A DNA stretch of 64,000 nucleotides, from the NCBI GenBank assembly GCA_044892505.1, contig CM097883.1, forward strand, positions 302,436,001-302,500,000. The letters run 5' to 3'. Under the pieces are notes generated by a model. The model was not told the DNA's origin, did not search any database, and saw only the letters and a list, made by a program, of their open reading frames with translations. The translations under genes and the position numbers were made by a program. Within the stretch, counting starts at the first letter, position 1; each line of letters starts with the position of its first letter. Positions 6,529-27,597 of this stretch are shown in pieces. Source of the stretch: Schmidtea nova (taxonomy: Eukaryota).

Positions 6529-6569
6529 AGGCCAACGAGCCTTATTGAATGACCTAGCTAGGCGTTATA

Positions 6570-9019: not shown

Positions 9020-9028
9020 CAAATTAGC

Positions 9029-12000
9029 ATGATGAGGAAAATAGAAAGCGAAAACGAACGATTGAATCGAGAAAGTCAAGCACGACACGCTCAGGAATGG
9101 GCAAGAATACAAAGAGAGGATGAACAAAAACAACAAGAAAGAGAGCGACAACCTCTAAGAATTAACATGCTAAGAGAAACAAACCAAACAGACACTCGCG
9201 AGAAAGAAACCACACCGGAAATAAATTCGATAAACCCGAATCCAACTGACAATGAAAGTCGAAAAGGAGTAATACAGGATGAGGGGGAAGCAGAAAAGGA
9301 AATAGAAAAGGAAGTGGAAACTGAGATAAACCAGGAAGAGAGGAAGGAGATTTGGAAAAGAGGAATGATGGTAATCATGCCCAACAAATCCGTGTTTAGA
9401 TTCCAGTATAACGTAAAAGAAGAAGTGGGAATATTATTCAACAAAGTAAACCAGATGGTTCCAGGAGTAACGAAACTGCCCAGAGAAGCGTTCTTACAAA
9501 TAGAAGGTGTGCCAAAAGTAAAGTTGGAATTAACGGATATATGGGAAAACTTGGGAGTAGTAGAAACAAAAAGAAACGTGATGATTATTAAAGAAATAGA
9601 ACCAGAAGAAATTCCACCACCAATACGTCACGAAACCCGAATCAGGCGAATATTTGAAGGAAAAATGATAAGAAGACGTTTAAAAGAGATAGACGAGTTG
9701 GGAAAGAAAATGGAAAAAGTCGAAGTAATAGAGGACAAAAATGAACTAACACCAGAAATCAACAAAAACAAAACAAAACCCACGGAGAATATACAAGGGG
9801 AAACGAACCAAACAGCACATATTAATATGTTAAGAAATACCACCAGAGAGTTCTCCGATGAAGAAGAAGATAGTGACATCAGTAGCCTAGCAGGAGACAT
9901 ATTAAATGAACCCGAAGACGAAAATAAAGAGAGAGAAGTAATAAAGACCTCAGAACCTACACAGATAAAAGTAGATGAAATCCAGAAATTACTAGATAAC
10001 TCGCTAGAAGTAATATATAACGAAGAGTTCATGGACAAGAAACAATATCGGAAATTCATGAAAGCATTATTACAAATGAACTACAAAGAATGGTTACAAG
10101 ACCGGGAAGTAGACATGTTAAATCGATACGTAAGGAAATTAATAGAGGAACCACTCCTCAATTACACCATCTCAATAATAATAAATACATCTACACCAAG
10201 AATCTGGATCAAAACTCCATTTACAGACGATATCTACAGATGGGTGGAGGACAGGCTAGGGAGCTCATATAAAAACAAATTCATCTATTCGCAGAATAGA
10301 CTCGTAAAGAAAAGAACGCACTTAGTAGAAACAGGTAAATGGCCAGGAGAAATAACCCTGTTATCAATATGTGACGAAAAGGAAGAAGAGAACCTACAAG
10401 AAGTTGCAAAGGAGGCAAACACGTGCTTCGAAAGGAGAATAGAACCTCGGTTAGAATACGCGAAAGAACGAGTCTTACGAAAGAATCTAAATTCCCTGAT
10501 AGAACAAATCATACCACAAGTCAAAAAACATAGAAAAGAGTTAATGAGAAGCGAATACGAGAAATTGAAACGATGTATTGAGTGCATACGTGACACAAGT
10601 CACACGAGATGGTCACAAATCTCACACGACAAATTAATCGCAAAAATGGGAAAAACAATGTTCAGACAAGGGAAAATAACAGATCTAAAAATTTCAGTGG
10701 AATTGCCTAATGAAGACACCAAAGAAATTGAAGTAGTAGCGGATTGCACCATTAAAGAATTAATAAATGTCATCAACGAGACACTAGTGCAAAGAGAACC
10801 CGAAGACGAATGGGAAGACGACATAATCATACAATATAACGAACATGTATTATGGGATCACGATGAGAGACGACTATATAAAATCGGTATATGGGATAAT
10901 CACCAAACCATCCACGTTATCAGAATGGACGATACACCCAGAGAAACTGCTAAAGATGAGAAAAGAGAACGGGAACGACGGAAAGAAGTTGTGCGCAAAT
11001 TACAACAAATAGTAGAAATCTATCGAAATTGGCGAACTTGGCCAGAGTGGGAAAATGTATTAGAAGAACTCAATCTCAACAGACGAATACGAACACCCGT
11101 AGAAAAACAATGGAACGAGAAAGGAAAATGTTGGGAACCAAAAGAAGGGGAATATGAAGAAGAATATGAAAGAGGAATGGAAGATGACTGCGAACCAGAA
11201 ATGAGAAGGGTTTGCATGGTGACAAGGAAAGCTACGCCAATAGACCTAGATGGACCAGAAACAGCGGCTATATGGTTAGAAAAGGAAAAGCAAAAAACGG
11301 AAGAATTTGTCGAAATATTAAAAACTAATGCGCACGGTAAGAGAAAAGTAATAAAAGGTCTCGCAGATTTTTTCGTGGTTAATGGAGAAGATATAACATG
11401 CTTGCGTAAAGTGGCAAAAGCAATCGCAGAATATAAAAGAGTCAACGAATGGTGTCCGGAACAACTAGACCACGTAATTAGGAAATGGAGAAATCAAGAA
11501 TTCTCGCAAGAAATTCCACAAAAAGTACATTTAAGAATAATATATCCAAACAAGGATAAGGAAGAGCTTTGGGTAGGAATAGCAGAAAAAATTCGAGATA
11601 TTAAAAAGAAATTGAGATACGAACCACCGTTCCATTTACAACACCAAGGACGATCATTAGATAACAGTTTAGAAATTGGAATAACGCCAGCACAACTAGA
11701 CCTCATGAATACCCTGACAGTAGAAGCAATAGCGGGTCAACCATTGAAACGTAAAGAAGAAAACCATAAACCACACGGAAGTATAAGTACGCCGAGCCCG
11801 ATGAAATCAGTACTAACACCAGGGACAAGTTCGAGACGATCTGAGACAACACCCAGAGAAACCAGAGAAAGGACTCCACCACAACCATACGACGTGGACG
11901 AAATTTTAACGGATAGCGACGATATGATAGAAGAATTAACCGAATTAACAAGGGAAAAAGACGATAACATTTTCGAAAGAATACAAGAATTACCTACGAC

Positions 12001-15000
12001 AATACAAGTAACCAACACCGGAGAAACAGAAGTCGAAGAAGAAATAATAATAGAAGAAATAAACGATTTGACAGAAGACGAAACGAGAGGGGCGAATGTC
12101 GAAAATGTACAATTAACCCAAGAAATGGAAAGATGGTTAGAAGAAAGAGCTAACGAACCAAGAGATGTCACGGAAGAAACAGGACGGGCAACAAGGTTTG
12201 TGGAAACAGGTACAGGAATGGATAGACGACCTCGAGGTAGACCCAAGACAGATCCAGCAACTGTAGTTATAAGAAATAAAGATGAAAAGAGACAAGATCA
12301 ATGGGAATTATGCTTAAGGAAACTAAATAAAATTGCGGAGATGAAAGAAAAAGAGACAACACCAATATGTCAAGGGGAGGAATGGATATCGAAAACAATA
12401 ATGGAAATATTGGCAATAATTGATCCGGAATTGAGAAAATACTGGCGGATAACTGAGATAAGCGAAAAGGCGAAGTCACTATACAGCGCAATCTCCCCCA
12501 TCTTACCGGAATTCATAAAAGAAAAGACGAAGTCAAATCATTTAGACTGGCAAGGAACCACTACGTTAATAAAGAAACTGACAGAAGGAGCGGAAACAGA
12601 TAACAAATACGTAATAGCCATTGCATACACGATCTACAATCTGTTGACACTGAGTAGAGGTCGACCAAAACCCACTGCATTAGAGAGACATATAAAAAAT
12701 ACCGCAAAGATTATAGCTAGAGAAATAGAACCTTACGTCATTAACAAAGGAGGATGGGAAACATTTATAAAAACTAACCAGAAGAAAACGCAAGCGAAGA
12801 ATATGAAGAAGAAATTCGAAAAAATATTGGAAGAGTTAGAAAAAGAACAAGCAGAAACAGGAAACGCGAAGTCATCAATGAATTTGAGCTCTATAATAAT
12901 GATGATGTTGATATGGATGATTAGCACCGATAGCGCAACAGCATTCGAAGTGTTTGATTGCGACCAAATGAAGTTAGGAGAAAAGTATTCATTGAGAGGT
13001 ACGGAGCAATGTAAAGATGCAACTCCAGTAGAGTTGCAAAAGATTAAAAAAGAACAATGGTACCACGTGTATCAAGAAGCAGAACTCATAAAGACAATGG
13101 TGAATGAATGTAAGGTGCAGAAGACGAGATTCGCATTTTACTGCGGGAGAGGACATTATTCAGCAATTGTCATGCCAGGAACGGAAAGAGAACCAATCGT
13201 GTTACAAGGAGAGGACTGCGAAGCACTGTTTAAACATGGAGAAGTAACAACAAGAGATAAAATCAAGATAAGAGGAAAGCCAGGAATGATGCTGCAACAG
13301 ACATACTATGTAGCAGGACGGATTACGGGAGGAGAAGGATATTGTCAAGGAGAAACCTACCCGATATTCGGAGTACCCGCAACTAACTTAGTGGTGATGG
13401 ATACGTATATAGTCGAATTAAAAAGCTATGAAGCATTCTTCGAACCAACAACGGGAGAAATGAAAACGTTATCCATGTGTAAAATCGACAGGAGCATGTG
13501 TCAAACGGGAATGTCAACATTAGTATACAAACCAAAGGTGAACGAATGTCAATTACAACTGCTACAAGGAGCACAGTTCGACGAAATTCAAGGAAAGACA
13601 TTCCAGGAAGAAGACGATGACGACAAAGCTAGAGCAAAGCACCTCAAGGAAGCTTTGGAGAATAAAAGACAATTGAAACCAGATCATAGGGAAAAACGGA
13701 TAGAGATGAGAGCCACACCAACAGTATTGATAACCACAAATCAGGATGTGGGAATGAGATTCATAAAAGGGAAAGCAACCCTTAAGTGTAGTACAACGGT
13801 ATACGAAACAAATTATCCAGGAATATATGTGTCAAAACAAGAAGTACCAAATGCGAAACCCAAAATCGACACAATGGATATCAAACTACACCTGTATGTG
13901 AATAATAAAATGGATTTCCTATTCCATAGAGGACAAGCCTCATTACAAAAAGTGTACTACGATCTGATAAACAATGATTGTATACTGAATCGAGAAATAT
14001 TAAAGACAAAGTTGGCCGTAGCGATTACGAATCCAGATAGCGCGATGCCATTATTACCACTGAGAGAAGGACATTTCGGAAGAGTGGTTGGAGAAGCAAT
14101 GTATGTATACATTTGCGAAAAGACACACGCGTCGCTAGCAGCAACAACGCAGTTGAAACCTGGAACCTGTACAAACGAGTTGGAAATCGATTACAAAGGA
14201 AAAGTACGATACGTTCAACCAGTGACGAGAATCATCAATCCACCAGGGTTTGAACCAAATCCATTCAACTGTAGTAATGCGTATGGACCACTTTATCAGA
14301 AACCAGATGGTAAATGGGTTATGTTCCCAGGAAGATCCGAAGTGATAGCACCAAGAGAATTCGAGCTAATGCAGTTGTCAAAGGATAGGCAATTCAGCGA
14401 CGTAGATGTCTCAAACAACGGAATATATAGTCCAAAGGATTTAGAAGCAGCAAGGCAGAATATATTATTTCCAGCGAGAAGAGAAGCATTACTGTCAAAT
14501 ATCGTAACGATAACGGGAGGAACGGATTATCGAGAAGGACCGAATTATGAACTGTTGTTGTCACCAGCACATTTCAAGAAAGCCACGGAAAATATGATGA
14601 AAGCAATGTGGGGAAGATTCCTGATATTTGGACAAATGATGGCTGGAATACTGGGGGTCATATTAATAATCCAAATCGTCAGAGTGATAATAACGCAAAT
14701 GTTAGCGTGTTTCGATATCTACAAGAGAGAAAAGAAAGTGAATTGGAAAATGGTAGTAGGGTTTTTACCATTCCTTGCGAAAACAATGGTGTTGCACGGA
14801 CACTCAAAAGATATCCATCGAATAAAAAGACTCCTAAAGATACTAGCAAAAATGAAGGGAACAGATGAAGAAGTAGGACGAAAATTTAAAAAGATAATGA
14901 ATGACGAACAAGCAAGACAACAGCTCAAGAGAGAAAGAAAAGGTTTATGGGAGAGGGTGAAAGGATATAAAACCCAAAATGATTCGAGTGACGACGATGA

Positions 15001-18000
15001 TGACGATGACGACTATAAGGGAGGACAAGTGTATAAGAACCAAGCACCGCAATACATCGAAAAGAATCCAGCCGACGCATGGAAATGTTACGCACCTCCA
15101 CCAACCATGTATCAAGAACCACTACAAGGAGGAAAAAATAGCACGATGCAAATGATGCCAATGACAAATGTATACCCCATGATACCAGAAGATTATAAAA
15201 TGAGAAGATGTAGAAGCGTAGATCCACAAGGAGATACACACACGATCGCAGTGATGTCATCAAACACAGGTCCAGTATTAACCACGACAATAGAGATTAA
15301 CGGAAGAGAAATCGAAGCAATGATCGACACTGGAGCAAATATTTCCGCCATCGATATCAAATGGATACCACAAGAGCAAAGACGGGAAATAGAAAGGACA
15401 AACGTCCATGTAATTGCATGTAGCAAAGAAGTTGTAGAAGTAGCAGGAAGATGGTGGGTAAAAATACGCCACTTAAATACAGAAATCGATACGTACGTAG
15501 CAGTCATACCAGCATTAAGCGTACCTTGCATTATCGGAACAGATTTGATGCCAGCGTTATTTAAAGAAATCGTAATCGATCTCGGAACAATGAGATTAAA
15601 GGATCGCACCGGACAAATATGCGCAATAGAAGCCAAGGTAACGAGTTCAAAGCAAATGATAATACCGGCAAGAAAGGAAAAAATATGTTACGTAAAAATA
15701 GATCCGACAATCCAAGGCGATATGATTTTCGAACCAAGTAAGAGATTCGAGAAAAGAAAAGCGTTGCCAATGGCAAGAGGACTAGTCAACATAAACGATA
15801 ATGGGGAAATCCCAATAAACGTAGTAAATTTCGACGAGGAGGATAAAATAATCTACGAAAACGAAAGACTAGGTAAACTAACCCCAATGATGGATATCGA
15901 AATACCAATAGAAGGGGCAGAGAAAGATAAAGAACCAACCTGGAATATCGATAGTGAATTATTAAATGAGGAGCAAAAGAAGCAGTTAGAAAAACTTCTG
16001 ATAGAGTATAAGGACATATTTGCAGCATCCGATTTAGATCTAGGAACATGTGATGTCACGTTACATACAATACCATTAACAGATGAAACACCAATTGCAT
16101 TAAGGCCGTACAAACTAGCGGAAGCACAGAAAGCAGTAGCAGAAGCAGAAGTGAAGAAAATGTTGGATGCAGAAGTAATCGAACCAAGTTGCTCACCCTG
16201 GCAATTTCCAGTGGTAATGGTAAAGAAGAAAGACGGAACACAGAGATTCTGCATAGACTACCGAAGATTGAATACAGTAACAAAACGAGATACTTACCCA
16301 TTACCAGACATCAACGAAATGCTACTAACATTACAGGGAGCAGCATATTTTACATCACTAGATCTGAAAAGCGGATACTGGCAAATAAAAATGAAGGAAG
16401 AAGATAAAGAGAAAACTGCCTTTACCATCGGTAGAGACCTATATCAATTTCGAAAGATGCCCTTTGGATTAACAAACGCACCAGCATCATTTCAGAGATG
16501 CATGAATTTCGTCACCCATGGAATAAAGCAGTGTATGGTCTACATCGACGATTTATTAATCTACTCTAGCACGTTTGAACAACACATACAGGATATTCGA
16601 GATGTATTCGTTAGACTTAGACAATGGAAGTTAAAACTCAAGCCATCCAAATGCGATTGGGCAAAAGAAAAGGTTACATTTTTAGGACATATAGTGTCAG
16701 CAAAAGGAAAAGAACCGGATCCTAGAAACATCGACAAGGTAAAAGAATGTCCAGTACCAAAAACAATAACCCAGATACAAGAGTTTCTTGGATTGTGTGG
16801 ATACTATAGAAAGTTTATTAAAGATTACGCCGGAATCGCAAAGCCTATACAGGAGCTGGTAAAGAAAGATGTATCATTCATATGGGGAGATGAACAGCAA
16901 ACAGCCTTCGAGACATTAAGAGATAAACTGATAACCGCACCCATATTAGTACACCCAGACTTCAAGAAGCCATTCTTACTTGCAACAGATGCAAGCGGAT
17001 ATGCAGCAGGAGCAGTATTAGGACAATACGACGACGAAGGAAAAGAACGGGTAATCGGATATTATAGCCGGACATTCAAAAAGCATGAGAAAAATTACTC
17101 AGTAACAGAGCGAGAAGCATTAGCAATTATACTAGCAATTAAACACTTTAAATATTTATTATGGGGACACATCATCTGCATAACAACAGATCACCAACCG
17201 CTTGTATGGTTAGGACAGCACAAGGAAACATCCAGTAGATTAATGCGATGGGCAATGCAGCTACAGGAGTACTCACCAGACATAAAATTTAAATCAGGAC
17301 GAGCGAATGCGAATGCAGACTGTATGTCAAGACTGACATTTCCGGAATTAACCGATCCTGATGTACAACGAATTTGTGTATTAATAGCAGAAGATTTAGA
17401 TTTTAGTGAGTTAAAGAAAGATCAACAGGAAGACAAAGAATTAGGACAGATCATAGAGTTCCTAACATCTCGAAATATGGAAGTATTCAAGGATAATAAG
17501 GAATTAAAGGAACATATAGGAAAGTATCAACATCGATATATAATAAATAAAGGATGGTTGTTAATACAAGATGGTGAAAAGAGATTGATGTGTTTACCGG
17601 AAAACAGAAGGAAAGAGATAATGACCCAATACCACGATGGAAAATTAGGAGGTCATATGTCAGAGAAAAAGACAATAAATCGTATGAGACAAAAATATCA
17701 TTGGCGAACAATGGAGGAAGATATTAAAGAATGGATTAAAAATTGTCTAACTTGCGCAACCAGAAAGGATAGTGGGAAGAAATGGAAAAACCCGCTACAA
17801 CCAATGCCAATACCAGCAGAGCCAATGACAACTATAGCAATGGACGTAATAGGACCATTACCAGAAAGTTTAAACGGAAATATTTATATATTGGTAATAA
17901 CGGATTACCTGACGAAATTCCCGGAAGCATTTGCCATGCAAGATCAAAAAGCAAAAACCGTAGCAAAAATTCTAGTGGAAGAAATATGTTGCAGATACGG

Positions 18001-21000
18001 AACTCCAAAACAAATACTCACAGACCAAGGAACTAATTTTATGAGCGAGTTATTGAACGAGGTGACAAACTATTTCAGAATAGCAAAATTGAGAACTTCA
18101 CCATATCACCCGCAAACGAATGGACAAACGGAGCGATTCAATGGTACATTGATTAGAATGTTATCAAATTACGTCAGCAGACATCAAACTGACTGGGACG
18201 AGTACATAAAATTATGCTTAATGGCATACCGAATGTCGATACATGCAGCAACAAAACTAAGCCCATTTCAACTTATGTATGGGAGAGAATGCAACATGCC
18301 CATAGATTTGGAGTATCAACCACCATTATCCCAATATATGGAAGATGACGACTACGTAACCAAATTCAAAGAAAGAATGCAGGAAATATGGAAAACGGCA
18401 GAACTAAACATTAAATTTTATCAGGAAAGTTATAAGGATTTGCACGACCAAAAGAAAAATGTTAAAGCGAACGATCTAAAACCAGGAGATTGGGTGATAA
18501 TAGAAACTCCCGAAATAATACCAGGAACGGTTAAGAAACTCCAAAGACCTGGAAGAGGACCTTATGAAATTATATACAAAAAGGACAATAATGTCAAAGT
18601 TAAGCTGATAAACCGACCATTAATACGACCCATATATGTAAACACCTGCAGATGTAAGAAGGTGCCTAAAACGATAACTACAACACCAGAGAATCGAATA
18701 ATAACCAGATCACAAACAGCCAGGATAAATATGCTCAGAGCAAACACAAGCGAAGACGACAAAGCAGAAATAAGGCAAAAAGAAATCAGAAATATAGAAA
18801 TCATATTGAAGGCGAGAGAGATAATGGGAAGATGGCATGTTAAAGACGAAGTAGGCATATCAAGGGACATTAGACATATAATTAGCCGTTACGCACAAGG
18901 ATTACCAACCGAACCAATTATTTCTGAATTATTGGAAAAAATCCCTGAAATACTCTTATTGAAAGATGTAGGAGGACAACCAGCCTTACACAATGCGATA
19001 GAGTGTAAAAACATTGAAAGAGCAAAAGAATTCCTAAAAATCGCAAAAGAAACAAACCAAAACTTGGACGTAGGGAATCGTGAACAAGAAACTCCATTAA
19101 TGACAGCCGCAATCCACCAAGCAGATAAAGAAATGGTAGATTTATTGATAAAAGCCCATTTCAGTTGGACAGAACGAGATAGAGAAGACAAAACAGTGCT
19201 AAATCACGTAATATGGAGTTCTCACCAACCAATGCTTAAATACATAATAACTAACTCCACGTGGGAAATAGACGAACTAGTAAAAGGAGACATTATCAAA
19301 GAGGCAATCAAAATTGGTAAATGCAACACGATCCGTAAGTTAATCAAATGGAAACGACCAGAAGATGATACATGGGTCTTAGACATAAACGAAGTATACA
19401 GCGAAGGACAAAACGCGCTGTTAAGATATCTTTTGAAATTTACTTGTGATCAGAAGACATTACTAACCGTATTAGACAGAGGAAACATAAACATCACAAA
19501 GAATGAAGAAGAATACAAATTCGATATAGAGAAGGAAGCCTTATTCAACAAGATTAGGAAATGGTGTGCGAAACCACTTGATAAACTAATAACATACAAA
19601 GACATAAACAATTTTAACGATAAATACCAGACGATAGTAAGTGAGTATGAGGAATTAGTAAAAATCTTAAACCATCCCGAAAAATGCAAACAGGTTTTAG
19701 AGAAAAAAGAAAGAGAAAGTAACAAGAAACTCACACCACTCTTCAAAGCAGAAGCACCATACCAAGCTAGACTAGATGCGATACAAGAAAAAGCAAAGGA
19801 GTTGCTACCGGAATTCGAGAATTGTAAACACGCATTAGAAATACTCGGTGCATTAGTTGAAAAAGTACACGCATACGCAAAAGGAACATACAATGGTAAC
19901 GATATAACGACTTTAAAAAAGGAGATGCCAGTAACATTTTTACTACCAAAGGACGGAATAATGCCCATACATAGAGCTCTACGAAATGGCAAAGATAAAA
20001 AAGTAATGGAAATTGCAAGAGTAATGCTAAACTGCGGAAGCAACATGAATATGGTAGACGAGAAAGGAGATACACTCATGATATTTGCAGCAAGGGCTAA
20101 AACAAAAACAAAGGTGTTGGAAGAACTATACAAAGCAGGTGCAGGACTTACAGGAAAGACAGATAAAGATAATTCAATTTTGGATGTAGCATTACTAACA
20201 CATAATTGGGAAATGGTCAACTTCATTAAAACAATCTCAAATCAGGAAGAAATAGATTACCTAACTGATACGGTCAAGAAACCCAGTGTACTAACAATGA
20301 TGCATAATGTCGAACTAACAGAAGCAATACTTACGTGGATAAATCCGAATACTAACGAACCAGCATTCAGGATTAATGAGTTTACAGAACATAACCAAAA
20401 CTGGTGTATAAGAAGTGCCTTAATAACATATAAATGGCCAGAGATATTGAAGATGTTTATGGAAAGAAAGGATCTAAGAATCACAAACAGCCCGAAAGAA
20501 GAAAAATACACAGGCAAATGGAAAGAATTGATGAAGACATACATCAACAATTGGATCAAGGCCAAAAAGGAAATCTTAGAATATAAATCCACTAACAAAG
20601 TAATACCGGAGCATGTAGAAACACAAGAATTTGAGGCAAGTAATCTAACGACATTAGCATATGCAAAATTGATAGAAGAAATCAATGTCGAGGACGACAT
20701 TTTCGACGAGCCAGGGGGAGATGACAATACAGACAGTGACGACGATAACAACTCAGAAAATTCGAACGATCAAGAACCACCCGATAAAGAGGAAAACGAG
20801 AGAAAAGACAAGAAACGAGACAAAGAAGAAAAGAAAAATGAAGACGAAAAACAAAAAAATGAAGAGGGAGAACAAAGAGACAAAGGAGATAAAAATGACA
20901 CCCAACGAACAGGTTACAAATCAACCATAAAACCATTCTTCAAACCAGAGTTACTATTATTAACAGTGATTTTAACGTTAGTTAACCCAAGTCAAGGAAT

Positions 21001-23278
21001 GACATGTGAAGAAAGGGCAATAATACAAATAAAAAACGCAAAAGGAATCGAACGAGTATGTTGGTCAAAAAAGGACAAAATCACGGAACAAAATAGTCCG
21101 ATGGATTGCAGAATCTCAGAACACGAGCAAGAAATCATAGAGATCAATGACTTAGATCTAAATACCTGGTACAAAATATGCACCGTTAGAAAACAAAAGC
21201 ATCCAAGATCACACAACACAATCGCATGTGCAAAATACCAAACACCTAAAGCAGCCATGACAATACAACAGTCACCCAAAGGAGATTACATCATCGGAAA
21301 ATGTGGAAGAACAGAGACACAAGGAACAGAAAACAAAAAACCCCAGGCAATAGATAAGCAAACAACACCAACCCTACGAATTACAATAGAGAGGCCCGAA
21401 GCAAGAGTTGCCACAAACGAAACCGAAAGAGTGACTTACCAAATGGAAGTATTATGTTTAGCACTCATACTAATAATGATAAAACGATTAGAGGAAGGAA
21501 TAGAAATTGAAACTATGACAATAACAGAAGTAGAAGATACACAGAATACTAACATAAAATGTTGGGCGAGGAATAACGAGGAAATCGGCGTAAATGAAAT
21601 AAGGAAAAGTCGAAAACCAACAACAAATAAAGTAATTAAAGTATCCGAAGTAAAAGCAGATAAGATGTATAAACTATGCCTATTAGAAAAAGAGACAAAC
21701 AAGAAAGGTACCACAAAATGTAAAACATTTCAACCCGGAGAAGTAATAAAGTTCAGAAGGAGAACGAGGAAGAGAAATAAACAAATCAAGCGGAAAGTAA
21801 ACATAACATTAGAAATAAAAGAGATAGAACCAAATGTGAAAAGAGTATGCTGGAGGAAGTACGAAAAAGAAGTAAATAAAAGAACGACACCACAATGTCG
21901 AACAAAAACAGGAACAACGACGATTCAAATAAAAGGTTTAGAAAGTAAACAAACCTACGAAATATGTTTGGTAAAGAAAAATGATCAGATAACGGTAAAC
22001 GACCTAGAATGCGGAATATATACAACTTCATCCGGAACAAGAACCAAAACGTTAACACGGAAAAATAAAAGGAAACAACAAAACAAAGGAAAACCGAAGT
22101 ACACCACTACCTTTAAAAACAATAAACAACCAACAAACCAAGAAGTTACGACGAAACCCGAGAGAAAAACATCAGCAACTCTAACATTATGGAAAATAGA
22201 GAATAAAACATTGGAAATATGTTGGATAATAGTACAGAAACATATAAGAAGACAATCAAGAGAGTGCAGAAAAACAAATAAAGAAATCAAGATCGAAAAA
22301 CTACAATTTAATAGCGAGTACGAAGTATGCGCAATAGAAAAAATGGACGCACTAGGAAACCAACAAGAAAGATGCGAAACCTACTATACACCAGCAAACG
22401 CGACATCAAAAGGAGTAGCAAGGAAAATCGAATTCAAGGAACTAAGCCAAACGAATGAACAAATGGACGCAGAAAAAACAATAACCGACCCTCAAGCAAA
22501 ATGGACACCCGAAGAAGTTATCAAAGAAGTAAAAAGAAAGCAAGAGGAACGAGAACAATTAATGAGAAAACTAAAAGGACAATACGGAATAATGTTCAAC
22601 CAAAGCAAATCTATACAAACAGACGAGAATAAACAAATCAAAGAATTAATTGGCTTAGGAATATTAACAGCGACCATACCAGTAATAATCGCCTTATCAG
22701 CTATATGGATACGCAAGATAAACCCAAGAAAATCAACAACCCAATGGCTAAATATAGATAATACAAGCCATGGAGTAGAAATACTAGAAGAAAAAGCACG
22801 AGAAGAAACAAATAAGAAAGAAACAAAAAGCGGAAAACTAGGAATAAACAACGAAGACAAGGAAATAAAAGAGATTAAAGGAGAAGAGAAAAAATATGAA
22901 AGGCGAACCAGAAGCCTACCGCAGAGTTCAAAATGGTTGGGTCTAACAGTAATACTGACATTAATCAATAGGGAAGAAGCAACAAACCTACAAGCAGGGA
23001 TAAAAATAGTAAATGTCCAGGAGGTCGAGAAAATATGCTGGAGTAGAGAGGATGAACCAATTGGGAAGGATAACCCACTAAAATGTATAATCAGAAAATC
23101 CGACCAGGATATAGTACGAATAGAAGGGATGGATAGAGGAATCATGCATCGGATATGCATAATAGGAAAGGAAAAGAAGTCGGGGCTACCTAAGACAGTC
23201 GTATGTCAAAAATATGAAACGCCCAGACTTGAGTGGTATAAAGTAAAACCAACAAAGAAAAGATCAAAAACACAATAG
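9029..23278 (+). CDS. pol: 4749-aa polyprotein (UBL-Bcl2-like-Env-PR-RT-RH-INT-ANK-FN3/TM)
   Basis: Uninterrupted 14.25-kb ORF in the same frame as gag; domains listed separately below. Confidence 0.97.
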   Translation: MMRKIESENERLNRESQARHAQEWARIQREDEQKQQERERQPLRINMLRETNQTDTREKETTPEINSINPNPTDNESRKGVIQDEGEAEKEIEKEVETEINQEERKEIWKRGMMVIMPNKSVFRFQYNVKEEVGILFNKVNQMVPGVTKLPREAFLQIEGVPKVKLELTDIWENLGVVETKRNVMIIKEIEPEEIPPPIRHETRIRRIFEGKMIRRRLKEIDELGKKMEKVEVIEDKNELTPEINKNKTKPTENIQGETNQTAHINMLRNTTREFSDEEEDSDISSLAGDILNEPEDENKEREVIKTSEPTQIKVDEIQKLLDNSLEVIYNEEFMDKKQYRKFMKALLQMNYKEWLQDREVDMLNRYVRKLIEEPLLNYTISIIINTSTPRIWIKTPFTDDIYRWVEDRLGSSYKNKFIYSQNRLVKKRTHLVETGKWPGEITLLSICDEKEEENLQEVAKEANTCFERRIEPRLEYAKERVLRKNLNSLIEQIIPQVKKHRKELMRSEYEKLKRCIECIRDTSHTRWSQISHDKLIAKMGKTMFRQGKITDLKISVELPNEDTKEIEVVADCTIKELINVINETLVQREPEDEWEDDIIIQYNEHVLWDHDERRLYKIGIWDNHQTIHVIRMDDTPRETAKDEKRERERRKEVVRKLQQIVEIYRNWRTWPEWENVLEELNLNRRIRTPVEKQWNEKGKCWEPKEGEYEEEYERGMEDDCEPEMRRVCMVTRKATPIDLDGPETAAIWLEKEKQKTEEFVEILKTNAHGKRKVIKGLADFFVVNGEDITCLRKVAKAIAEYKRVNEWCPEQLDHVIRKWRNQEFSQEIPQKVHLRIIYPNKDKEELWVGIAEKIRDIKKKLRYEPPFHLQHQGRSLDNSLEIGITPAQLDLMNTLTVEAIAGQPLKRKEENHKPHGSISTPSPMKSVLTPGTSSRRSETTPRETRERTPPQPYDVDEILTDSDDMIEELTELTREKDDNIFERIQELPTTIQVTNTGETEVEEEIIIEEINDLTEDETRGANVENVQLTQEMERWLEERANEPRDVTEETGRATRFVETGTGMDRRPRGRPKTDPATVVIRNKDEKRQDQWELCLRKLNKIAEMKEKETTPICQGEEWISKTIMEILAIIDPELRKYWRITEISEKAKSLYSAISPILPEFIKEKTKSNHLDWQGTTTLIKKLTEGAETDNKYVIAIAYTIYNLLTLSRGRPKPTALERHIKNTAKIIAREIEPYVINKGGWETFIKTNQKKTQAKNMKKKFEKILEELEKEQAETGNAKSSMNLSSIIMMMLIWMISTDSATAFEVFDCDQMKLGEKYSLRGTEQCKDATPVELQKIKKEQWYHVYQEAELIKTMVNECKVQKTRFAFYCGRGHYSAIVMPGTEREPIVLQGEDCEALFKHGEVTTRDKIKIRGKPGMMLQQTYYVAGRITGGEGYCQGETYPIFGVPATNLVVMDTYIVELKSYEAFFEPTTGEMKTLSMCKIDRSMCQTGMSTLVYKPKVNECQLQLLQGAQFDEIQGKTFQEEDDDDKARAKHLKEALENKRQLKPDHREKRIEMRATPTVLITTNQDVGMRFIKGKATLKCSTTVYETNYPGIYVSKQEVPNAKPKIDTMDIKLHLYVNNKMDFLFHRGQASLQKVYYDLINNDCILNREILKTKLAVAITNPDSAMPLLPLREGHFGRVVGEAMYVYICEKTHASLAATTQLKPGTCTNELEIDYKGKVRYVQPVTRIINPPGFEPNPFNCSNAYGPLYQKPDGKWVMFPGRSEVIAPREFELMQLSKDRQFSDVDVSNNGIYSPKDLEAARQNILFPARREALLSNIVTITGGTDYREGPNYELLLSPAHFKKATENMMKAMWGRFLIFGQMMAGILGVILIIQIVRVIITQMLACFDIYKREKKVNWKMVVGFLPFLAKTMVLHGHSKDIHRIKRLLKILAKMKGTDEEVGRKFKKIMNDEQARQQLKRERKGLWERVKGYKTQNDSSDDDDDDDDYKGGQVYKNQAPQYIEKNPADAWKCYAPPPTMYQEPLQGGKNSTMQMMPMTNVYPMIPEDYKMRRCRSVDPQGDTHTIAVMSSNTGPVLTTTIEINGREIEAMIDTGANISAIDIKWIPQEQRREIERTNVHVIACSKEVVEVAGRWWVKIRHLNTEIDTYVAVIPALSVPCIIGTDLMPALFKEIVIDLGTMRLKDRTGQICAIEAKVTSSKQMIIPARKEKICYVKIDPTIQGDMIFEPSKRFEKRKALPMARGLVNINDNGEIPINVVNFDEEDKIIYENERLGKLTPMMDIEIPIEGAEKDKEPTWNIDSELLNEEQKKQLEKLLIEYKDIFAASDLDLGTCDVTLHTIPLTDETPIALRPYKLAEAQKAVAEAEVKKMLDAEVIEPSCSPWQFPVVMVKKKDGTQRFCIDYRRLNTVTKRDTYPLPDINEMLLTLQGAAYFTSLDLKSGYWQIKMKEEDKEKTAFTIGRDLYQFRKMPFGLTNAPASFQRCMNFVTHGIKQCMVYIDDLLIYSSTFEQHIQDIRDVFVRLRQWKLKLKPSKCDWAKEKVTFLGHIVSAKGKEPDPRNIDKVKECPVPKTITQIQEFLGLCGYYRKFIKDYAGIAKPIQELVKKDVSFIWGDEQQTAFETLRDKLITAPILVHPDFKKPFLLATDASGYAAGAVLGQYDDEGKERVIGYYSRTFKKHEKNYSVTEREALAIILAIKHFKYLLWGHIICITTDHQPLVWLGQHKETSSRLMRWAMQLQEYSPDIKFKSGRANANADCMSRLTFPELTDPDVQRICVLIAEDLDFSELKKDQQEDKELGQIIEFLTSRNMEVFKDNKELKEHIGKYQHRYIINKGWLLIQDGEKRLMCLPENRRKEIMTQYHDGKLGGHMSEKKTINRMRQKYHWRTMEEDIKEWIKNCLTCATRKDSGKKWKNPLQPMPIPAEPMTTIAMDVIGPLPESLNGNIYILVITDYLTKFPEAFAMQDQKAKTVAKILVEEICCRYGTPKQILTDQGTNFMSELLNEVTNYFRIAKLRTSPYHPQTNGQTERFNGTLIRMLSNYVSRHQTDWDEYIKLCLMAYRMSIHAATKLSPFQLMYGRECNMPIDLEYQPPLSQYMEDDDYVTKFKERMQEIWKTAELNIKFYQESYKDLHDQKKNVKANDLKPGDWVIIETPEIIPGTVKKLQRPGRGPYEIIYKKDNNVKVKLINRPLIRPIYVNTCRCKKVPKTITTTPENRIITRSQTARINMLRANTSEDDKAEIRQKEIRNIEIILKAREIMGRWHVKDEVGISRDIRHIISRYAQGLPTEPIISELLEKIPEILLLKDVGGQPALHNAIECKNIERAKEFLKIAKETNQNLDVGNREQETPLMTAAIHQADKEMVDLLIKAHFSWTERDREDKTVLNHVIWSSHQPMLKYIITNSTWEIDELVKGDIIKEAIKIGKCNTIRKLIKWKRPEDDTWVLDINEVYSEGQNALLRYLLKFTCDQKTLLTVLDRGNINITKNEEEYKFDIEKEALFNKIRKWCAKPLDKLITYKDINNFNDKYQTIVSEYEELVKILNHPEKCKQVLEKKERESNKKLTPLFKAEAPYQARLDAIQEKAKELLPEFENCKHALEILGALVEKVHAYAKGTYNGNDITTLKKEMPVTFLLPKDGIMPIHRALRNGKDKKVMEIARVMLNCGSNMNMVDEKGDTLMIFAARAKTKTKVLEELYKAGAGLTGKTDKDNSILDVALLTHNWEMVNFIKTISNQEEIDYLTDTVKKPSVLTMMHNVELTEAILTWINPNTNEPAFRINEFTEHNQNWCIRSALITYKWPEILKMFMERKDLRITNSPKEEKYTGKWKELMKTYINNWIKAKKEILEYKSTNKVIPEHVETQEFEASNLTTLAYAKLIEEINVEDDIFDEPGGDDNTDSDDDNNSENSNDQEPPDKEENERKDKKRDKEEKKNEDEKQKNEEGEQRDKGDKNDTQRTGYKSTIKPFFKPELLLLTVILTLVNPSQGMTCEERAIIQIKNAKGIERVCWSKKDKITEQNSPMDCRISEHEQEIIEINDLDLNTWYKICTVRKQKHPRSHNTIACAKYQTPKAAMTIQQSPKGDYIIGKCGRTETQGTENKKPQAIDKQTTPTLRITIERPEARVATNETERVTYQMEVLCLALILIMIKRLEEGIEIETMTITEVEDTQNTNIKCWARNNEEIGVNEIRKSRKPTTNKVIKVSEVKADKMYKLCLLEKETNKKGTTKCKTFQPGEVIKFRRRTRKRNKQIKRKVNITLEIKEIEPNVKRVCWRKYEKEVNKRTTPQCRTKTGTTTIQIKGLESKQTYEICLVKKNDQITVNDLECGIYTTSSGTRTKTLTRKNKRKQQNKGKPKYTTTFKNNKQPTNQEVTTKPERKTSATLTLWKIENKTLEICWIIVQKHIRRQSRECRKTNKEIKIEKLQFNSEYEVCAIEKMDALGNQQERCETYYTPANATSKGVARKIEFKELSQTNEQMDAEKTITDPQAKWTPEEVIKEVKRKQEEREQLMRKLKGQYGIMFNQSKSIQTDENKQIKELIGLGILTATIPVIIALSAIWIRKINPRKSTTQWLNIDNTSHGVEILEEKAREETNKKETKSGKLGINNEDKEIKEIKGEEKKYERRTRSLPQSSKWLGLTVILTLINREEATNLQAGIKIVNVQEVEKICWSREDEPIGKDNPLKCIIRKSDQDIVRIEGMDRGIMHRICIIGKEKKSGLPKTVVCQKYETPRLEWYKVKPTKKRSKTQ
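9365..11727 (+). CDS. Three ubiquitin-like segments in the polyprotein N-terminus (about 9365-9595, 10688-10930, 11525-11727)
   Basis: Beta-beta-helix-beta pattern, e.g. KISVELPNEDTKEIEVVADCTIKELI..IIIQYNEHVL..LYKIGI..TIHVI and VHLRIIYPN..KIRDIKKKL..LQHQGRSLDNS. By eye only; no C-terminal GG. Confidence 0.55.
12302..12782 (+). CDS. Bcl-2-like helical domain within the polyprotein
   Basis: EIEPYVINKGGWETFI resembles BH2 (Bcl-xL HLEPWIQENGGWDTFV). A hydrophobic alpha5-like segment lies about 50 aa upstream, without the canonical NWGR. Confidence 0.65.
12878..14800 (+). CDS. env: Envelope-like class III fusion glycoprotein (chuvirus / herpes gB-like) embedded in the polyprotein
   Basis: Internal signal peptide MNLSSIIMMMLIWMISTDSATA, then FEVFDC..C..YHVYQ..ECKVQKTR..FYCG, about 14 ectodomain Cys, VGEAMYVYIC..C..EL, GIYS..DL..ILFP, and TM WGRFLIFGQMMAGILGVILIIQIV (about 14610-14705). 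This motif order matches chuvirus-type glycoproteins as I know them. Confidence 0.82.
15245..15615 (+). CDS. Aspartic protease domain
   Basis: INGREIEAMIDTGANISAI (DTG at 15326) and downstream IIGTDL flap motif. Confidence 0.95.
15940..17330 (+). CDS. Reverse transcriptase plus RNase H
   Basis: SPWQFPVVMVKKKDG..RFCIDYRRLN, LDLKSGYWQ, MPFGLTNAPASFQ, YIDD (16541), LGH; RNase H ATDASG..EREALA..TDHQPL. Confidence 0.98.
17372..18720 (+). CDS. Integrase (HHCC, DDE, GPY)
   Basis: YHDGKLGGH..CLTC; AMDVIGPL, TDQGTNF, NGQTERFN; GRGPYEI. No chromodomain seen. Confidence 0.97.
18960..20240 (+). CDS. Ankyrin-repeat region fused after integrase
   Basis: GGQPALHNAI, QETPLMTAAI..MVDLLI, DKTVLNHVI, DGIMPIHRAL, GDTLMIFAA..LEELYKAGA, DNSILDVALL: two clusters of degenerate TPLHxA repeats. 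Confidence 0.85.
20940..23278 (+). CDS. Signal/TM-flanked array of Cys-containing FN3-like repeats (polyprotein C-terminus)
   Basis: Five repeats of about 75 aa with pattern (I/V)CW..C..I.I..L....Y.(I/L/V)C..C..(Y/F).T. Hydrophobic segments LLLLTVILTLV, VLCLALILIMI, LIGLGILTATIPVIIALSAIWI and WLGLTVILTLI. Confidence 0.7.
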
Positions 23279-24396
23279 ATCGACCAGCAACTCAGAAGGA
23301 AAATACAACGAACAAACCAAGAGAAGGGAAGAGAAGCACCAATAAAACGAGAGAAAGAATATCACCCCAACAGGAGTGCGTATGCATAGCATTAATACTA
23401 GCAATGTCCAAACGTTTCGACAGAGGAATAATAATAGAACAAATGGCTATAACAATAAGAAAAACAAGCAGCGCCAAACTATGCTGGGGAACATACAACG
23501 AACCAAGGAAAGAATACCAAGTTCAGACAAGCGACGAATCACGAACAAACAAGGAAATCGAAATACAAGAAATACAAATGAATGAAGAAGGAAGTATATG
23601 TATATGGGAGAAAGGAACCCAAGAAGATCAACCCGGAATAGAAAATTGCAAGACATTCCAAAAAGGAGAAACTCTGAAATTCGATGAAGAAGAACTAACT
23701 AAAACAGAAAGAACTCTGACATTAACAGGACTCGATCAGACAGTTAAAGGAATATGTTGGACAAAACATAAACCAGAAGTGGAAGAAGACAACCTAACCC
23801 ACTGTAAAGAAATAAAGAATAAAGAAAAAGTCGAATTAAAGAAAATGGAAGTAAATAGGACATACGCGATATGTACCTTCACCAGAAAAGGTTCAGAAAA
23901 ACCAGAATGCGGATTATATCAGATCTCAGAGAAACTACCACAACAGACCGAACCAGGAGGCGTAGAAAACCAGACAACGAAAAATGACGTCAAACAACTA
24001 CTAAACCGCCATTGGTCTACACAAGAAGTAATGAACAAAGTCAAGAATCAAGTGCAGAAGGAGAAGAAGCCAGAGGCTCAAACCCAAAATGAGATAAAAG
24101 CGAATCAGAATAAAATCAAAGCAACAAACCATGGAAAACCAGTAATAGGACTAATCAGTATAGGAATATTAATAGCATATGGAATACTGACGACAAGCAT
24201 AATAGTATATTGGAGATACAGAAAGAAAAACAAAGCGACAGCCATACAATGGCCAGATATCAAAATTATGAAACAAGGAATAGAAATACCAGAAGAGATA
24301 CAAAAAGAATTTCAAAGAAGAACGAAAGGTAAAGAATTCTGGAAACAAATAGAAGATGAAGAACGATACGAAGAAAAGACGATAATGATGGTATAG
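23242..24396 (+). CDS. Frameshifted continuation of the FN3-like/TM cassette (two more repeats plus TM)
   Basis: Frame open from 23242, overlapping the polyprotein end. CVCIALILAMSKRFDRGI parallels VLCLALILIMIKRLEEGI in the main ORF. TM VIGLISIGILIAYGILTTSIIVYW-RYRKK. Confidence 0.8.
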   Translation, partial: SKTNKEKIKNTIDRPATQKENTTNKPREGKRSTNKTRERISPQQECVCIALILAMSKRFDRGIIIEQMAITIRKTSSAKLCWGTYNEPRKEYQVQTSDESRTNKEIEIQEIQMNEEGSICIWEKGTQEDQPGIENCKTFQKGETLKFDEEELTKTERTLTLTGLDQTVKGICWTKHKPEVEEDNLTHCKEIKNKEKVELKKMEVNRTYAICTFTRKGSEKPECGLYQISEKLPQQTEPGGVENQTTKNDVKQLLNRHWSTQEVMNKVKNQVQKEKKPEAQTQNEIKANQNKIKATNHGKPVIGLISIGILIAYGILTTSIIVYWRYRKKNKATAIQWPDIKIMKQGIEIPEEIQKEFQRRTKGKEFWKQIEDEERYEEKTIMMV

Positions 24397-24522
24397 GGGC
24401 GGATTATGACTGTAAATAATAGTGTAAATAACAAAGCATTACCGTAATAGTATGGGTATCGATATTATAAAAAATTGTAAAAAGATAGAAAAGCAAAGTA
24501 AATAATGTATATAATTTAGAAA

Positions 24523-24879
24523 ATGACCGAACAGGACGAAACAACCGAAATAACTATGGCTATGAGATGGAAAGCACAATGCGATTTATTAGTACGAACA
24601 GTCAACTCATTACAGAACCAATTAGCGGAAAAACAAATGTTACTATCAGAAAGTTATAACAATTGTTTCGAACAATTACACAGAATAGAGGAACAACAAA
24701 GAGCGATAACTGAACTCACCAGAGAAAATCAAAATATAAGCAATATCAATCAAAGACAAGCAATAGAAATAAACCATTTAACACGAGGAGAAAGAGAAGA
24801 ATCCGAAGAAGGATGGATGAGTTGGGTAATAAATAGATTAAACAACGAAGCGGAACCAGATTCAACGAATGAGCCATAG
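24523..24879 (+). CDS. 118-aa coiled-coil protein, unknown
   Basis: ataatttAG-aaa-ATG start; heptad-like Q/E/L-rich core; same A-rich codon style as the element. Confidence 0.65.
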   Translation: MTEQDETTEITMAMRWKAQCDLLVRTVNSLQNQLAEKQMLLSESYNNCFEQLHRIEEQQRAITELTRENQNISNINQRQAIEINHLTRGEREESEEGWMSWVINRLNNEAEPDSTNEP

Positions 24880-24971
24880 ATAAATAAAGCGGAAAATTGT
24901 AAATATGTAAAAATAAAAACAAGAAAAATCAAAAATAAATGACAAGTCGAATGTATATATTATTGTAGAAA

Positions 24972-26348
24972 ATGGACAGAGAAGAACGAATAATCGAAAT
25001 TTTGAGACTAGAAAACAGAAAATGGAGCAAGAGACTCACATGCGGGAAATGTAACAATTTACTACGAGAACCCAGACAAACGATATGTGGATGTAGAATA
25101 TGTGCAAAATGTATACAAGAATTAGATGCAACAGGAATAACAACATGCCCAGAATGTAAAGAAGGAAGAATAGTGTTGGACGAAACCAGAACGGACAAAG
25201 CAACCCAAAGAGAAATTATGAGCACCACAACGGAGTGCGTAAATACACCTTGTACATGGCAAAGACAAATAAGTAATCTAGAAAACCATATGGAAAAGTG
25301 CGAGGAGAAAAGAACCGAATGCGAGAAGTGCCAACAGACAATAATTCTAAAGAAGAGAGAACAACACAAGGACGAATGTAAAGAAGAAGAAATCGCATGC
25401 GAATACTGCCAAACTCGAGAAACAAGGAGGAAAATTGAAGAAGAACACTTGAATATAACGGAAGAGAAAGTATGCGGACAATATACAAGCAAATGTCCAA
25501 ACAAGTGCGAAATAACAGAAGAAATAAAGTTACATGAACATTGGAAAGTATGTACCGAAAGACCAAGGGAATGTCCATATAATAAACAGGGATGTAAGGA
25601 GAAGCGGACGCGGAAAACAATGAAACAACACCTAGAAGAAGCAGCACTAATGCATGTGGAAATGACAAACGAAACGACAAAAGAAACGGAACAGACAATC
25701 CAGAAATTAGAAAAAGAAGTAGAATCACATAAGATAATGATGAGTTTACTACTAGAAACAAGAGAGCAGTTTGAACTAACCCGCCAAAGAATGGAAGAAA
25801 AAATAATAGCCATAGAAGAACTGGGAAAAGGAATGAAAATACAATATAATCAATTAATACGAGAAATTGACGAAAGAAGGGACTTACCAATTGCACCTTA
25901 CTTATGGAAAATAACAGATTTCCGAGACAAACTAACAGAAGCCCGAAATATGACTAAAACAGCAGTAATAAGCCCACCATTTTATTTATGGAAAAATGGG
26001 GTAAAAATAAGATTGAAGGTCTACCCAAATGGAGACGGAAGAGGACAAGGAACACACGTGTCAATATTTTTCTCGTTATGTAAAGGAGAATACGATGACC
26101 TAATAGAATGGCCCTTGAAAGTAGGAGTCATTATAAGAATCAAAAGTATAGGAAAACCAGTGGAAAAGTTCTTCGAGACAGACAAACATACGAGTACGAG
26201 TGAAAAACCAACAACAGAATGCGGACTAGCAGCAGGAGAACCAATGTTTATAAGGAAAGAAAACCTATGGGAACGACTATACGAGGACACTTTATACATA
26301 GAGATGGAGAAACACGAGAAAACGGATAGAAAAGGATGGTTGGCGTAA
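24972..26348 (+). CDS. Full-length intronless TRAF-family protein (RING, about 5 TRAF zinc fingers, coiled coil, MATH)
   Basis: CGKCNNLLREPRQTICGCRICAKC..CPEC; zinc-finger units such as CPNKC..HWKVC and CPYNKQGC..MKQHL; MATH YLWKITDF..SPPFY..YPNGDGRGQGTHVSIF..GEYDDLIEWP. Confidence 0.95.
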   Translation: MDREERIIEILRLENRKWSKRLTCGKCNNLLREPRQTICGCRICAKCIQELDATGITTCPECKEGRIVLDETRTDKATQREIMSTTTECVNTPCTWQRQISNLENHMEKCEEKRTECEKCQQTIILKKREQHKDECKEEEIACEYCQTRETRRKIEEEHLNITEEKVCGQYTSKCPNKCEITEEIKLHEHWKVCTERPRECPYNKQGCKEKRTRKTMKQHLEEAALMHVEMTNETTKETEQTIQKLEKEVESHKIMMSLLLETREQFELTRQRMEEKIIAIEELGKGMKIQYNQLIREIDERRDLPIAPYLWKITDFRDKLTEARNMTKTAVISPPFYLWKNGVKIRLKVYPNGDGRGQGTHVSIFFSLCKGEYDDLIEWPLKVGVIIRIKSIGKPVEKFFETDKHTSTSEKPTTECGLAAGEPMFIRKENLWERLYEDTLYIEMEKHEKTDRKGWLA

Positions 26349-26460
26349 TGAAGGAAGTGACCATGTAAATAAACTGTATAAAACAATATGAAATAACAAA
26401 TAATCAAAAACAATAAAAATAAAAACTGATTAAATATTCTCTTTATCTGTAATTATAGAA

Positions 26461-27522
26461 ATGGGAAATATAGAAGTAACCTTACAAGAAGTAACCGTAC
26501 ATCAAGACGAAATGATCAGAAATCACATGGAGCAGATTGGGATATGGATTCACGCCTATTATCGAAAACAGGAGGAATTAGAAAGACAAACCCAAGCACT
26601 AAGAGAAGCCGAGAAAACGAATCAAAGAAGTCGAGAAAAAATAGAAGAAGTCTACAAACTGCTAAGACAACAAAACGAATACTACAAAGGGATGATGAAA
26701 GAGCGACGAGAGGATAGGGATAGACAACAGATAAAAACAGACCATAAGATTCAGTCAATCACAGAACAAGCAAGATATTGGAAAAAAGAGGCAAAAGACT
26801 CTTACAAGGAAGCAAGGGAGATAATAGAACGAACAGCGTACAGCGATGATTGGAAACTGTTTAAAGAGATCGATGAATTAAAAGAAGAATTAGGGAAAAA
26901 GATCAGTCAAGAAGCGTCAAATAAAGTATGGAGTAAGAAAAGACAACAATTCATCAGGGAACAAGCCAAGAAAATTAAAGAATTAACTTATCAAGTACAA
27001 AGAATGGGAGAAGATTTAGCCAATCAAGAACAATTAAAAGGTATGCTGACCGGAATGTGGAATCACAAGGAAGAAAACATGAAAAGAGACATAAATGGAT
27101 ACCAAGGAGAGATTACCCAGAAGAAAATAGAATTAAAAAGAACTAAAGAAAGACTGGAAGAAACGAGGCAGAGTTATGAAGAGAACATAACCAATTTGAC
27201 AAAAGAAAACGAAGAACTGAGGAAAAAGCTGACAGAGAAACCAATACCAACAAAAGAAACAAGTATCACAGCAGCAGTGACCGAAATGATAGAGAAGGAG
27301 GAGAGACAGAAAAAATTGACAGAACTAGAAAAACAAATAGAAACCCTAACAGAGCAGGCAAACTATCTGGAATACTTATTAGACGAAGAGATCCAGATAT
27401 CCCACACATACCGAGAGGAAGTGGAAATGTGGAGGAGTACGGTAATATGGATGCCGCTCCCCATAAACCAAGTGGAACCTCAAGACGAAGGTTTTCACGA
27501 ACCTAACGAAACCCTCGTGTAA
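26461..27522 (+). CDS. 353-aa long coiled-coil protein, unknown
   Basis: ctttatctgtaattatAG-aa-ATG start; E/K/Q/R-rich helical composition throughout. Confidence 0.75.
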   Translation: MGNIEVTLQEVTVHQDEMIRNHMEQIGIWIHAYYRKQEELERQTQALREAEKTNQRSREKIEEVYKLLRQQNEYYKGMMKERREDRDRQQIKTDHKIQSITEQARYWKKEAKDSYKEAREIIERTAYSDDWKLFKEIDELKEELGKKISQEASNKVWSKKRQQFIREQAKKIKELTYQVQRMGEDLANQEQLKGMLTGMWNHKEENMKRDINGYQGEITQKKIELKRTKERLEETRQSYEENITNLTKENEELRKKLTEKPIPTKETSITAAVTEMIEKEERQKKLTELEKQIETLTEQANYLEYLLDEEIQISHTYREEVEMWRSTVIWMPLPINQVEPQDEGFHEPNETLV

Positions 27523-27597
27523 ATGAGCGGAAACCAATTGTAAATAAATTATGTAAAATAAAAAGTGTCAAGCCGTATTGACCGATGTATAAAAGAG

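Follow-up and report, generated by a model that had tools for sequence, protein, structure and literature searches.

A full-length TRAF gene carried as accessory cargo by giant retroelements of the planarian Schmidtea nova

A 64,000-nucleotide stretch of the Schmidtea nova genome (contig CM097883.1, positions 302,436,001 to 302,500,000; hereafter the window) contains a retroelement in which one open reading frame (ORF) reads as an entire TRAF. The locus raises the question of whether such a gene is a stray passenger of one copy or a maintained part of the element, and, if maintained, where it came from and what it might do for its carrier.

The TRAF gene and the element around it

The ORF at 24972–26348 (forward strand) encodes 458 stop-free amino acids in the order RING, five zinc fingers, coiled coil, and MATH domain, the complete set that a preliminary description of the locus had named and that Pfam, PDB, AlphaFold2, and cysteine patterns now confirm. 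Pfam recognises MATH_2 (E 1.5e-21), TRAF-mep_MATH (3e-19), and zf-TRAF (4e-7), with RING models giving weak matches (E 0.02–0.08). Against PDB, the MATH part matches the MATH domains of TRAF3/5/2 (E 1e-23 to 1e-20) and the N-terminal half matches the RING–zinc finger regions of TRAF6/5/2 (E 3e-13 to 1e-9). The AlphaFold2 model, built on a 96-row alignment, has a mean pLDDT of 94.5 and shows a helix at residues 225–302 and a MATH sandwich. The parts of the protein are as follows, all on the forward strand:

25041–25157 (+): RING with eight Cys, residues 24–62 (Cys pattern; aligns to TRAF2/5/6 RINGs)
25236–25655 (+): five TRAF-type zinc fingers, residues 89–228 (Pfam and five patterns)
25644–25877 (+): coiled coil, residues 225–302 (AlphaFold2 model)
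25746–25784 (+): 13-residue coiled-coil patch, residues 259–271, identical in four element subfamilies
25893–26315 (+): MATH/TRAF-C domain, residues 308–448 (Pfam, PDB, AlphaFold2)

By the domain criteria of MATH, eight-ligand RING, zinc fingers, and coiled coil, the protein is a TRAF of the TRAF2/3/5 type. Seven of the RING cysteines are present in 34 of 34 element copies and the eighth in 33.

The gene lies in an element of 29.6 kb with two 3067-bp LTRs that differ at 7 positions, and a 4-bp target duplication, CAAA, stands on both sides; the insertion is young. Its remaining features are:

1852–4918 (+): 5′ LTR, 3067 bp, TG...CA, 7 differences from the 3′ LTR
5299–5760 (+): 153-aa accessory ORF whose C-terminal RING is of IAP type; BIR absent (best matches cIAP2/XIAP RING, E 8e-10)
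7337–9019 (+): gag frame with CCHC knuckles (Pfam)
9020–23278 (+): 4752-codon polyprotein with env-like fusion glycoprotein, protease, RT, RNase H, integrase, and ankyrin repeats (Pfam)
23242–24396 (+): membrane-anchored tail frame, a single frame with the polyprotein in a distant subfamily
24523–24879 (+): 118-aa coiled-coil-like accessory ORF (dN/dS 0.08–0.12; 52% identity in the distant subfamily)
24950–24968 (+): predicted splice acceptor, T-rich, ending in TAG 3 nt before the TRAF ATG (sequence pattern, conserved)
26461–27522 (+): 353-aa coiled-coil accessory ORF (dN/dS 0.05–0.09; acceptor-like site 2 nt before the ATG)
27598–28158 (+): 186-aa ORF with a hydrophobic N terminus and a membrane-spanning-like stretch (homolog in the distant subfamily)
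28377–31443 (+): 3′ LTR, 3067 bp, pairing with the 5′ LTR

The polyprotein matches Monjiviricetes_fusion (E 2e-70), RVT_1, rve, and Ank_2 in Pfam. Its env-like region lies between gag and PR-RT-RH-IN in one giant frame, with the ankyrin repeats following the integrase. The tail frame at 23242–24396 is probably the end of the polyprotein, severed in the window copy by a private frameshift near 23.26 kb; an indel near 23260, at the boundary of the polyprotein and ORF3, sets this copy apart from all 34 copies compared with it. The 153-aa IAP-type RING ORF is retained in all four TRAF-bearing subfamilies at 47–73% identity, its helical N-terminal part being conserved.

Several further observations concern the element and its surroundings. 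A block of ~1.45 kb at about 22790–24245, missing from two closer sister subfamilies, resembles a duplicated Cys/Trp-patterned repeat module with a membrane anchor, the first copy of the module having no Pfam match. Five nucleotides past the 5′ LTR is a primer-binding-site-like sequence (4924–4941), which we take to resemble a tRNA-Pro primer site. ORFs of 166–202 aa occur within the LTRs (3128–4430 and 29653–30955) without a convincing Pfam match, and short tandem repeats with units of about 29–32 nt occupy 6231–6770 between the RING ORF and gag. Further downstream, a satellite array of about 10 kb begins at 36542, with 55 copies of a 177-bp unit, a strong G and A skew, and 94–98% identity among the units listed.

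The published planarian Ty3/Gypsy giants Burro and GYPSM1 are likewise about 30 kb long, with multi-kb LTRs and accessory ORFs (PMC6431247), and they share with the window element the env between gag and pol in a huge frame, the ankyrin repeats, and a cargo of RING and MATH_TRAF_C domains. By this architecture and its planarian affinity, rather than by comparison with the Burro1–4 reference sequences, the element appears to be of Burro type. It belongs to a sister lineage of Burro1 rather than to Burro1, since its 5′ ORF is RING-only and lacks the BIR. Searches of Pfam, PDB, and the atlas gave no match to a Bcl-2-like motif in the element; the published detection, in the Burro polyprotein, used other methods. 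In Burro1 the MATH_TRAF_C domain is inside the polyprotein, and in an element of D. tigrina it is in an upstream accessory ORF (PMC6431247); here, by contrast, a whole RING–zinc finger–coiled coil–MATH gene forms a separate ORF downstream of pol.

Copies, subfamilies and selection

A genome search with the TRAF DNA gave 547 candidates, the 40 best-scored of which are all full length at 95–100%. In each of the 29 TRAF copies retrieved besides the window's own, the flanks are element sequence. A second set consisted of the 39 best non-self integrase matches among 1566 candidates, with the 10 kb downstream of each being read; as these copies were picked by integrase, their selection is independent of TRAF presence. 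The gene is present in 34 of the 39, four break off before it, and one holds about 90% of it. Its frame is open in 24 of those 34 copies and broken in the other 10. The TRAF is thus multi-copy cargo, as proposed, and not a peculiarity of a single copy.

An 18-mer from the MATH region has 337 exact matches in the genome. Twenty more of these places, sampled by hand among those that head the list for one chromosome, were all in element context and included two more subfamilies at 77% and 72% DNA identity. A fourth subfamily, at 52% protein identity and with 122 18-mer matches, shows an identical gene order at the four loci checked. The TRAF therefore stands at the same place in the same gene order in four subfamilies, the other three being 77%, 71%, and 52% identical in protein to the window. 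A fifth family, with 244 18-mer matches and two loci checked (L065 and L066), carries MATH alone within the polyprotein, so that the published polyprotein-MATH form also exists in the present genome; a search for a BIR upstream of the polyprotein in this family turned up nothing but a RING homolog, seen in two copies. A full-length TRAF is a standard, fixed accessory cargo of these elements.

Within single copies (L002–L030), divergence from the window differs gene by gene—L003, for example, has a dS of 0 in the small ORF and of 0.09 in the TRAF—which suggests recombination among active elements. Near-identical copies about 33 kb apart (L023–L025) and 14 kb apart (L020–L021) are apparently tandem arrays or local duplications.

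Selection was assessed by counting estimates of dN/dS, in which variants are not independent as the copies look like mosaics. Among 27 distinct TRAF-picked copies, the mean pairwise TRAF dN/dS is 0.11, the first three regions being used for this pairwise analysis. In the integrase-picked set, variants common to several copies comprise 129 synonymous and 58 non-synonymous changes, again with a dN/dS of 0.11, which rises to 0.16 when transitions are weighted 5-fold. Controls in shifted frames give 0.9–2.0, and all five regions are constrained. By region, the within-family values are 0.12–0.17 for the RING, 0.15–0.23 for the zinc fingers, 0.07–0.11 for the coiled coil, and 0.06–0.08 for MATH. The gene is accordingly under functional constraint (dN/dS 0.11–0.16) and far from neutral evolution. 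Singleton variants are laxer (0.36–0.54), and, because of this and of the 10 broken copies among 34, selection seems to act chiefly during replication, with constraint along replicating lineages and decay of copies after insertion.

Between subfamilies, where dS is near or above 1, the TRAF dN/dS is 0.14–0.18 (0.26–0.47 weighted). The RING gives 0.18–0.45 (0.40–0.85 weighted) and is the laxest part in three comparisons among closer subfamilies. Its zinc ligands are kept and its surface varies between subfamilies, so that RING ligase activity is not assured. The best-conserved stretch of the protein is the coiled-coil patch at residues 259–271, identical in four subfamilies and missing from the aligned host TRAFs. 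The constraint acts on the protein, since synonymous changes lie underneath, and we infer that the patch may be a docking site. In a MATH loop, a Cys-Tyr pair kept by host TRAFs is changed in the element TRAFs and is variable among subfamilies. This loop presumably lines the receptor groove; the alteration would fit changed or lost receptor binding and hence also a decoy.

Host origin and the planarian TRAF count

The proposed capture from the host is borne out by phylogeny. In full-length trees, the element TRAFs form one group (100/100) joined by two unnamed proteins, P0034 and P0051 (98/98), and the whole is nested in the triclad TRAF clade (100/99). An AU test rejects a grouping with TRAF2/3-like proteins from outside the flatworms (p 0.001). 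The closest named full-length proteins are the TRAFs of Dendrocoelum and Dugesia. With these triclad TRAF2/3-like proteins (Dendrocoelum lacteum TRAF-2/-4/-5 and Dugesia japonica TRAF-2-like A), the element TRAF has in common the domain order, the all-Cys RING core, a long third zinc finger, and a length of about 450–490 aa, but it is only 28–36% identical to them and differs in its A-rich recoding, its own coiled-coil patch, and its altered MATH loop. As the trees place it among planarian TRAFs, the gene appears to be an old capture from a planarian host. No direct donor was found among the TRAFs compared, and a metagenome scan for relatives of P0034/P0051 returned only a distant locus, at 27%. 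In a MATH-only tree the polyprotein-MATH form joins the element TRAFs (97/89 under LG; 94/88 under a mixture model), favouring a single capture that would include the polyprotein MATH. The origin trees have long branches and a flagged composition bias. For MATH alone, the AU test does not reject a link of the element TRAFs to the host tandem cluster described below (p 0.08).

Three traits of the gene had been remarked on beforehand, and they differ in what they signify. The recoding to the element's A-rich style is real: fourfold-degenerate sites of the TRAF are 69% A and 4% T, matching the element's pol (67/9) and differing from 11 host-type TRAF ORFs (25–41% A, 20–45% T). The RING does carry Cys where His was expected, in 34 of 34 element copies, but this is not specific to the element: the same Cys occurs in 8 of the 11 host-type ORFs (the other three have no RING match) and in three named TRAFs of Dendrocoelum lacteum, and is therefore a planarian host trait. 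A scan of 175 proteins found Cys in 27, His in 83, and no match in 65. Since host planarian TRAFs have it, the Cys is rejected as an inactivating change. The lack of introns, finally, is true of the element TRAF but does not prove a retroposed mRNA. A single frame also spans RING to MATH in six host-type TRAFs (L031, L035, L036, L037, L050, and L064), whose skew is low and whose surroundings show no Burro gene order, and intron absence is thus uninformative on the route of capture. RNA is the usual capture route for LTR elements.

It had also been suggested that TRAF expansions in planarians could be partly element cargo. Element copies do dominate genomic MATH counts, with at least 703 exact 18-mer MATH places in the element families. 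However, when the top 150 of 2419 scored MATH candidates were sorted by position, 73 proved host-type. A large host TRAF/MATH cluster at 405–455 Mb of one contig (C2), with many tandem genes and its own clade, accounts for 63 of the 73; the tally was counted by hand, with 36 distinct host-type places examined. Given this real host cluster (63 of the 150 best MATH matches), the published expansion in planarian transcripts (PMC6109357, in part) needs no element to explain it. Both expansions, host cluster and element cargo, are real, and planarian TRAF gene counts and RNAi designs must separate the element loci—at least about 700—from host genes. In several host-type TRAFs the RING exon and the MATH exon are separate. 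Decayed pol or env fragments lie near a few host-type loci (L055–57, L068, L072, L073, and L076).

Predicted expression signals and proposed function

An acceptor-like T-rich YAG precedes the ATG by 2–3 nt in four of the five accessory ORFs, compared with 2 of 461 internal ATGs. Ahead of the TRAF, the acceptor AG is retained in 18 of the 19 sampled copies covering it, among subfamilies 72–77% identical in DNA, and an acceptor-like site persists in all four subfamilies. The four 3′ spacers measure 75–126 nt (24397–24522, 24880–24971, 26349–26460, and 27523–27597 in the window). The motif TGTANATA is found 7 times within the 405 nt of these spacers and 0 times in 20.9 kb of coding sequence, and none of 2000 shuffles reaches 7. 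Its sites stand just after stops and just before acceptors, and we take it to resemble a Pumilio element or a UGUA 3′-end signal. Acceptors and spacers would fit splicing from a leader or spliced-leader processing. In Macrostomum, operon spacers peak near 100 bp (PMC8629364, in part). A spliced genomic copy was not seen, none of 122 exact TRAF-start places lacking the acceptor T's. Reads from four runs of one study cover the element evenly and, among the joints listed (15 of 45), show none at a predicted acceptor, which has no bearing on expression.

On balance we lean, with modest confidence, towards the view that this conserved, host-related TRAF acts as a rewired adaptor that promotes the survival of whichever cell the element is active in. 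It would be made from a spliced single-gene message via the acceptor directly before its ATG, would trimerise as other TRAFs do, and would receive a partner on the invariant coiled-coil patch. Together with the element's IAP-type RING protein, it would bias host TRAF/TAK1-p38/TBK1 signalling against apoptosis and inflammatory damage, whereby the host cell would survive long enough for the element to be copied. This reading is preferred because planarian host TRAFs are required for cell survival, their knockdown raising cleaved caspase-3 (PMC7586133, in part), because planarian traf2-1 dampens infection damage (PMC4993586, in part), and because the Burro1 IAP reportedly protects stem cells from apoptosis (Lee et al. 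2026, as told in part of PMC13465017). As an output, NF-kB is doubtful; TAK1-p38/JNK or TBK1 would be likelier, since clear NF-kB homologs are not identified in S. mediterranea according to part of PMC13563047.

A predicted complex of the TRAF coiled coil–MATH trimer with the IAP-type RING protein scored a median of 0.17 against a mark of 0.34, which is evidence neither way. Some observations may count against the pro-survival adaptor. In mammals the BIR domain binds TRAF2, and the absence of a BIR from the element's IAP-type ORF may argue against a TRAF–IAP partnership. The lack of a match to Burro's Bcl-2-like motif in the Pfam, PDB, and atlas searches may be counted here too. The RING is also the least constrained part between subfamilies, and a viral TRAF can be pro-apoptotic, as is ISKNV ORF111L, a protein of 296 aa with RING, coiled coil, and MATH (PMC3352826, in part).

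Possible, though unlikely, is that the protein serves instead as an immune decoy or dominant-negative, joining host TRAF trimers or tying up their partners and so silencing a TBK1/TAK1 defence against the element. Classical dominant-negative TRAFs lack the RING and zinc fingers; here both are retained with nearly invariant ligands and within-family dN/dS of 0.12–0.23, and the dominant-negative role initially suggested is, in its classical form, not supported. The changed and variable MATH loop and the RING relaxed between subfamilies would nevertheless suit a decoy, as would the related family with MATH alone in its polyprotein, the classic decoy form. TBK1, moreover, restricts the expression of foreign DNA in planarians and induces TRAFs there (PMC13563047, in part). 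Loss of host TRAF, however, kills planarian cells, which would harm the element itself (PMC7586133, in part).

It is improbable that the role is internal to the element, with the TRAF binding the element's own membrane and coiled-coil proteins for private signalling or particle trafficking and having little contact with the host. The most conserved stretch is indeed an element-specific coiled-coil patch missing from host TRAFs, and the coiled-coil and membrane ORFs beside the TRAF are retained in the same order across four subfamilies, but the polyprotein-MATH family has no coiled coil. Distinctly improbable is a mutualism at the level of the host, in which copies are kept as an extra TRAF supply for stem cells: the Burro1 IAP offers a precedent (Lee et al. 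2026, per the account in part of PMC13465017), yet inserted copies decay (10 broken among 34; dN/dS of 0.36–0.54 for singletons), and the 20 further sampled loci are all in element context, with no lone domesticated copy seen. A benefit to the host could coexist with the pro-survival adaptor. A neutral passenger from a recent capture is hardly credible and is refuted by a dN/dS far below 1 with frame controls, within the family and between subfamilies, by full recoding, and by retention of the gene in subfamilies separated by a dS near or above 1; no support for it was found.

Building on the pro-survival adaptor, a wider scenario may be sketched, which as a whole we regard as speculative. A Burro ancestor would have taken one whole planarian TRAF, remodelled its coiled coil as a private site for docking, and assembled a self-contained survival module from TRAF, IAP-type ligase, and membrane proteins, with each gene spliced out of an array resembling an operon; Burro1's MATH-only form would then have arisen later, through reduction of that one capture to a decoy.

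Parts of this picture are already known, namely MATH cargo in Burro (PMC6431247) and viral TRAFs (PMC3352826, in part). The novelty implied by the preliminary description was thus overstated. The megalocytivirus TRAF (ISKNV ORF111L) and TRAF-like proteins of giant viruses resemble the present case in having a virus-like carrier and host death signalling as the target, but their carriers are DNA viruses and ORF111L is pro-apoptotic (PMC3352826, in part). Viral proteins account for 48 structure matches to the element TRAF at E up to 0.001, and, the named ones being only 10–29% identical, separate captures in viruses and Burro are indicated. The B-IAP of Burro1 is likewise a regulator of cell death that a Burro element carries and that derives from a host; it is a different gene, and its function has been tested (Lee et al. 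2026, via part of PMC13465017). The literature searched held no account of a full-length Burro TRAF, though Grohme 2018, Jurka 2007, and Lee et al. 2026 may contain one, and no description was found there of selection on a Burro TRAF, its phylogeny, or an element-specific invariant coiled-coil patch.

What had been a domain label in Burro annotations becomes a gene open to testing: an entire signalling adaptor of the host, selected over long divergence, beside an IAP-type ligase. As such, it bears on the question of whether the retroelements of planarians, in the manner of complex viruses, manipulate immunity and the survival of stem cells.
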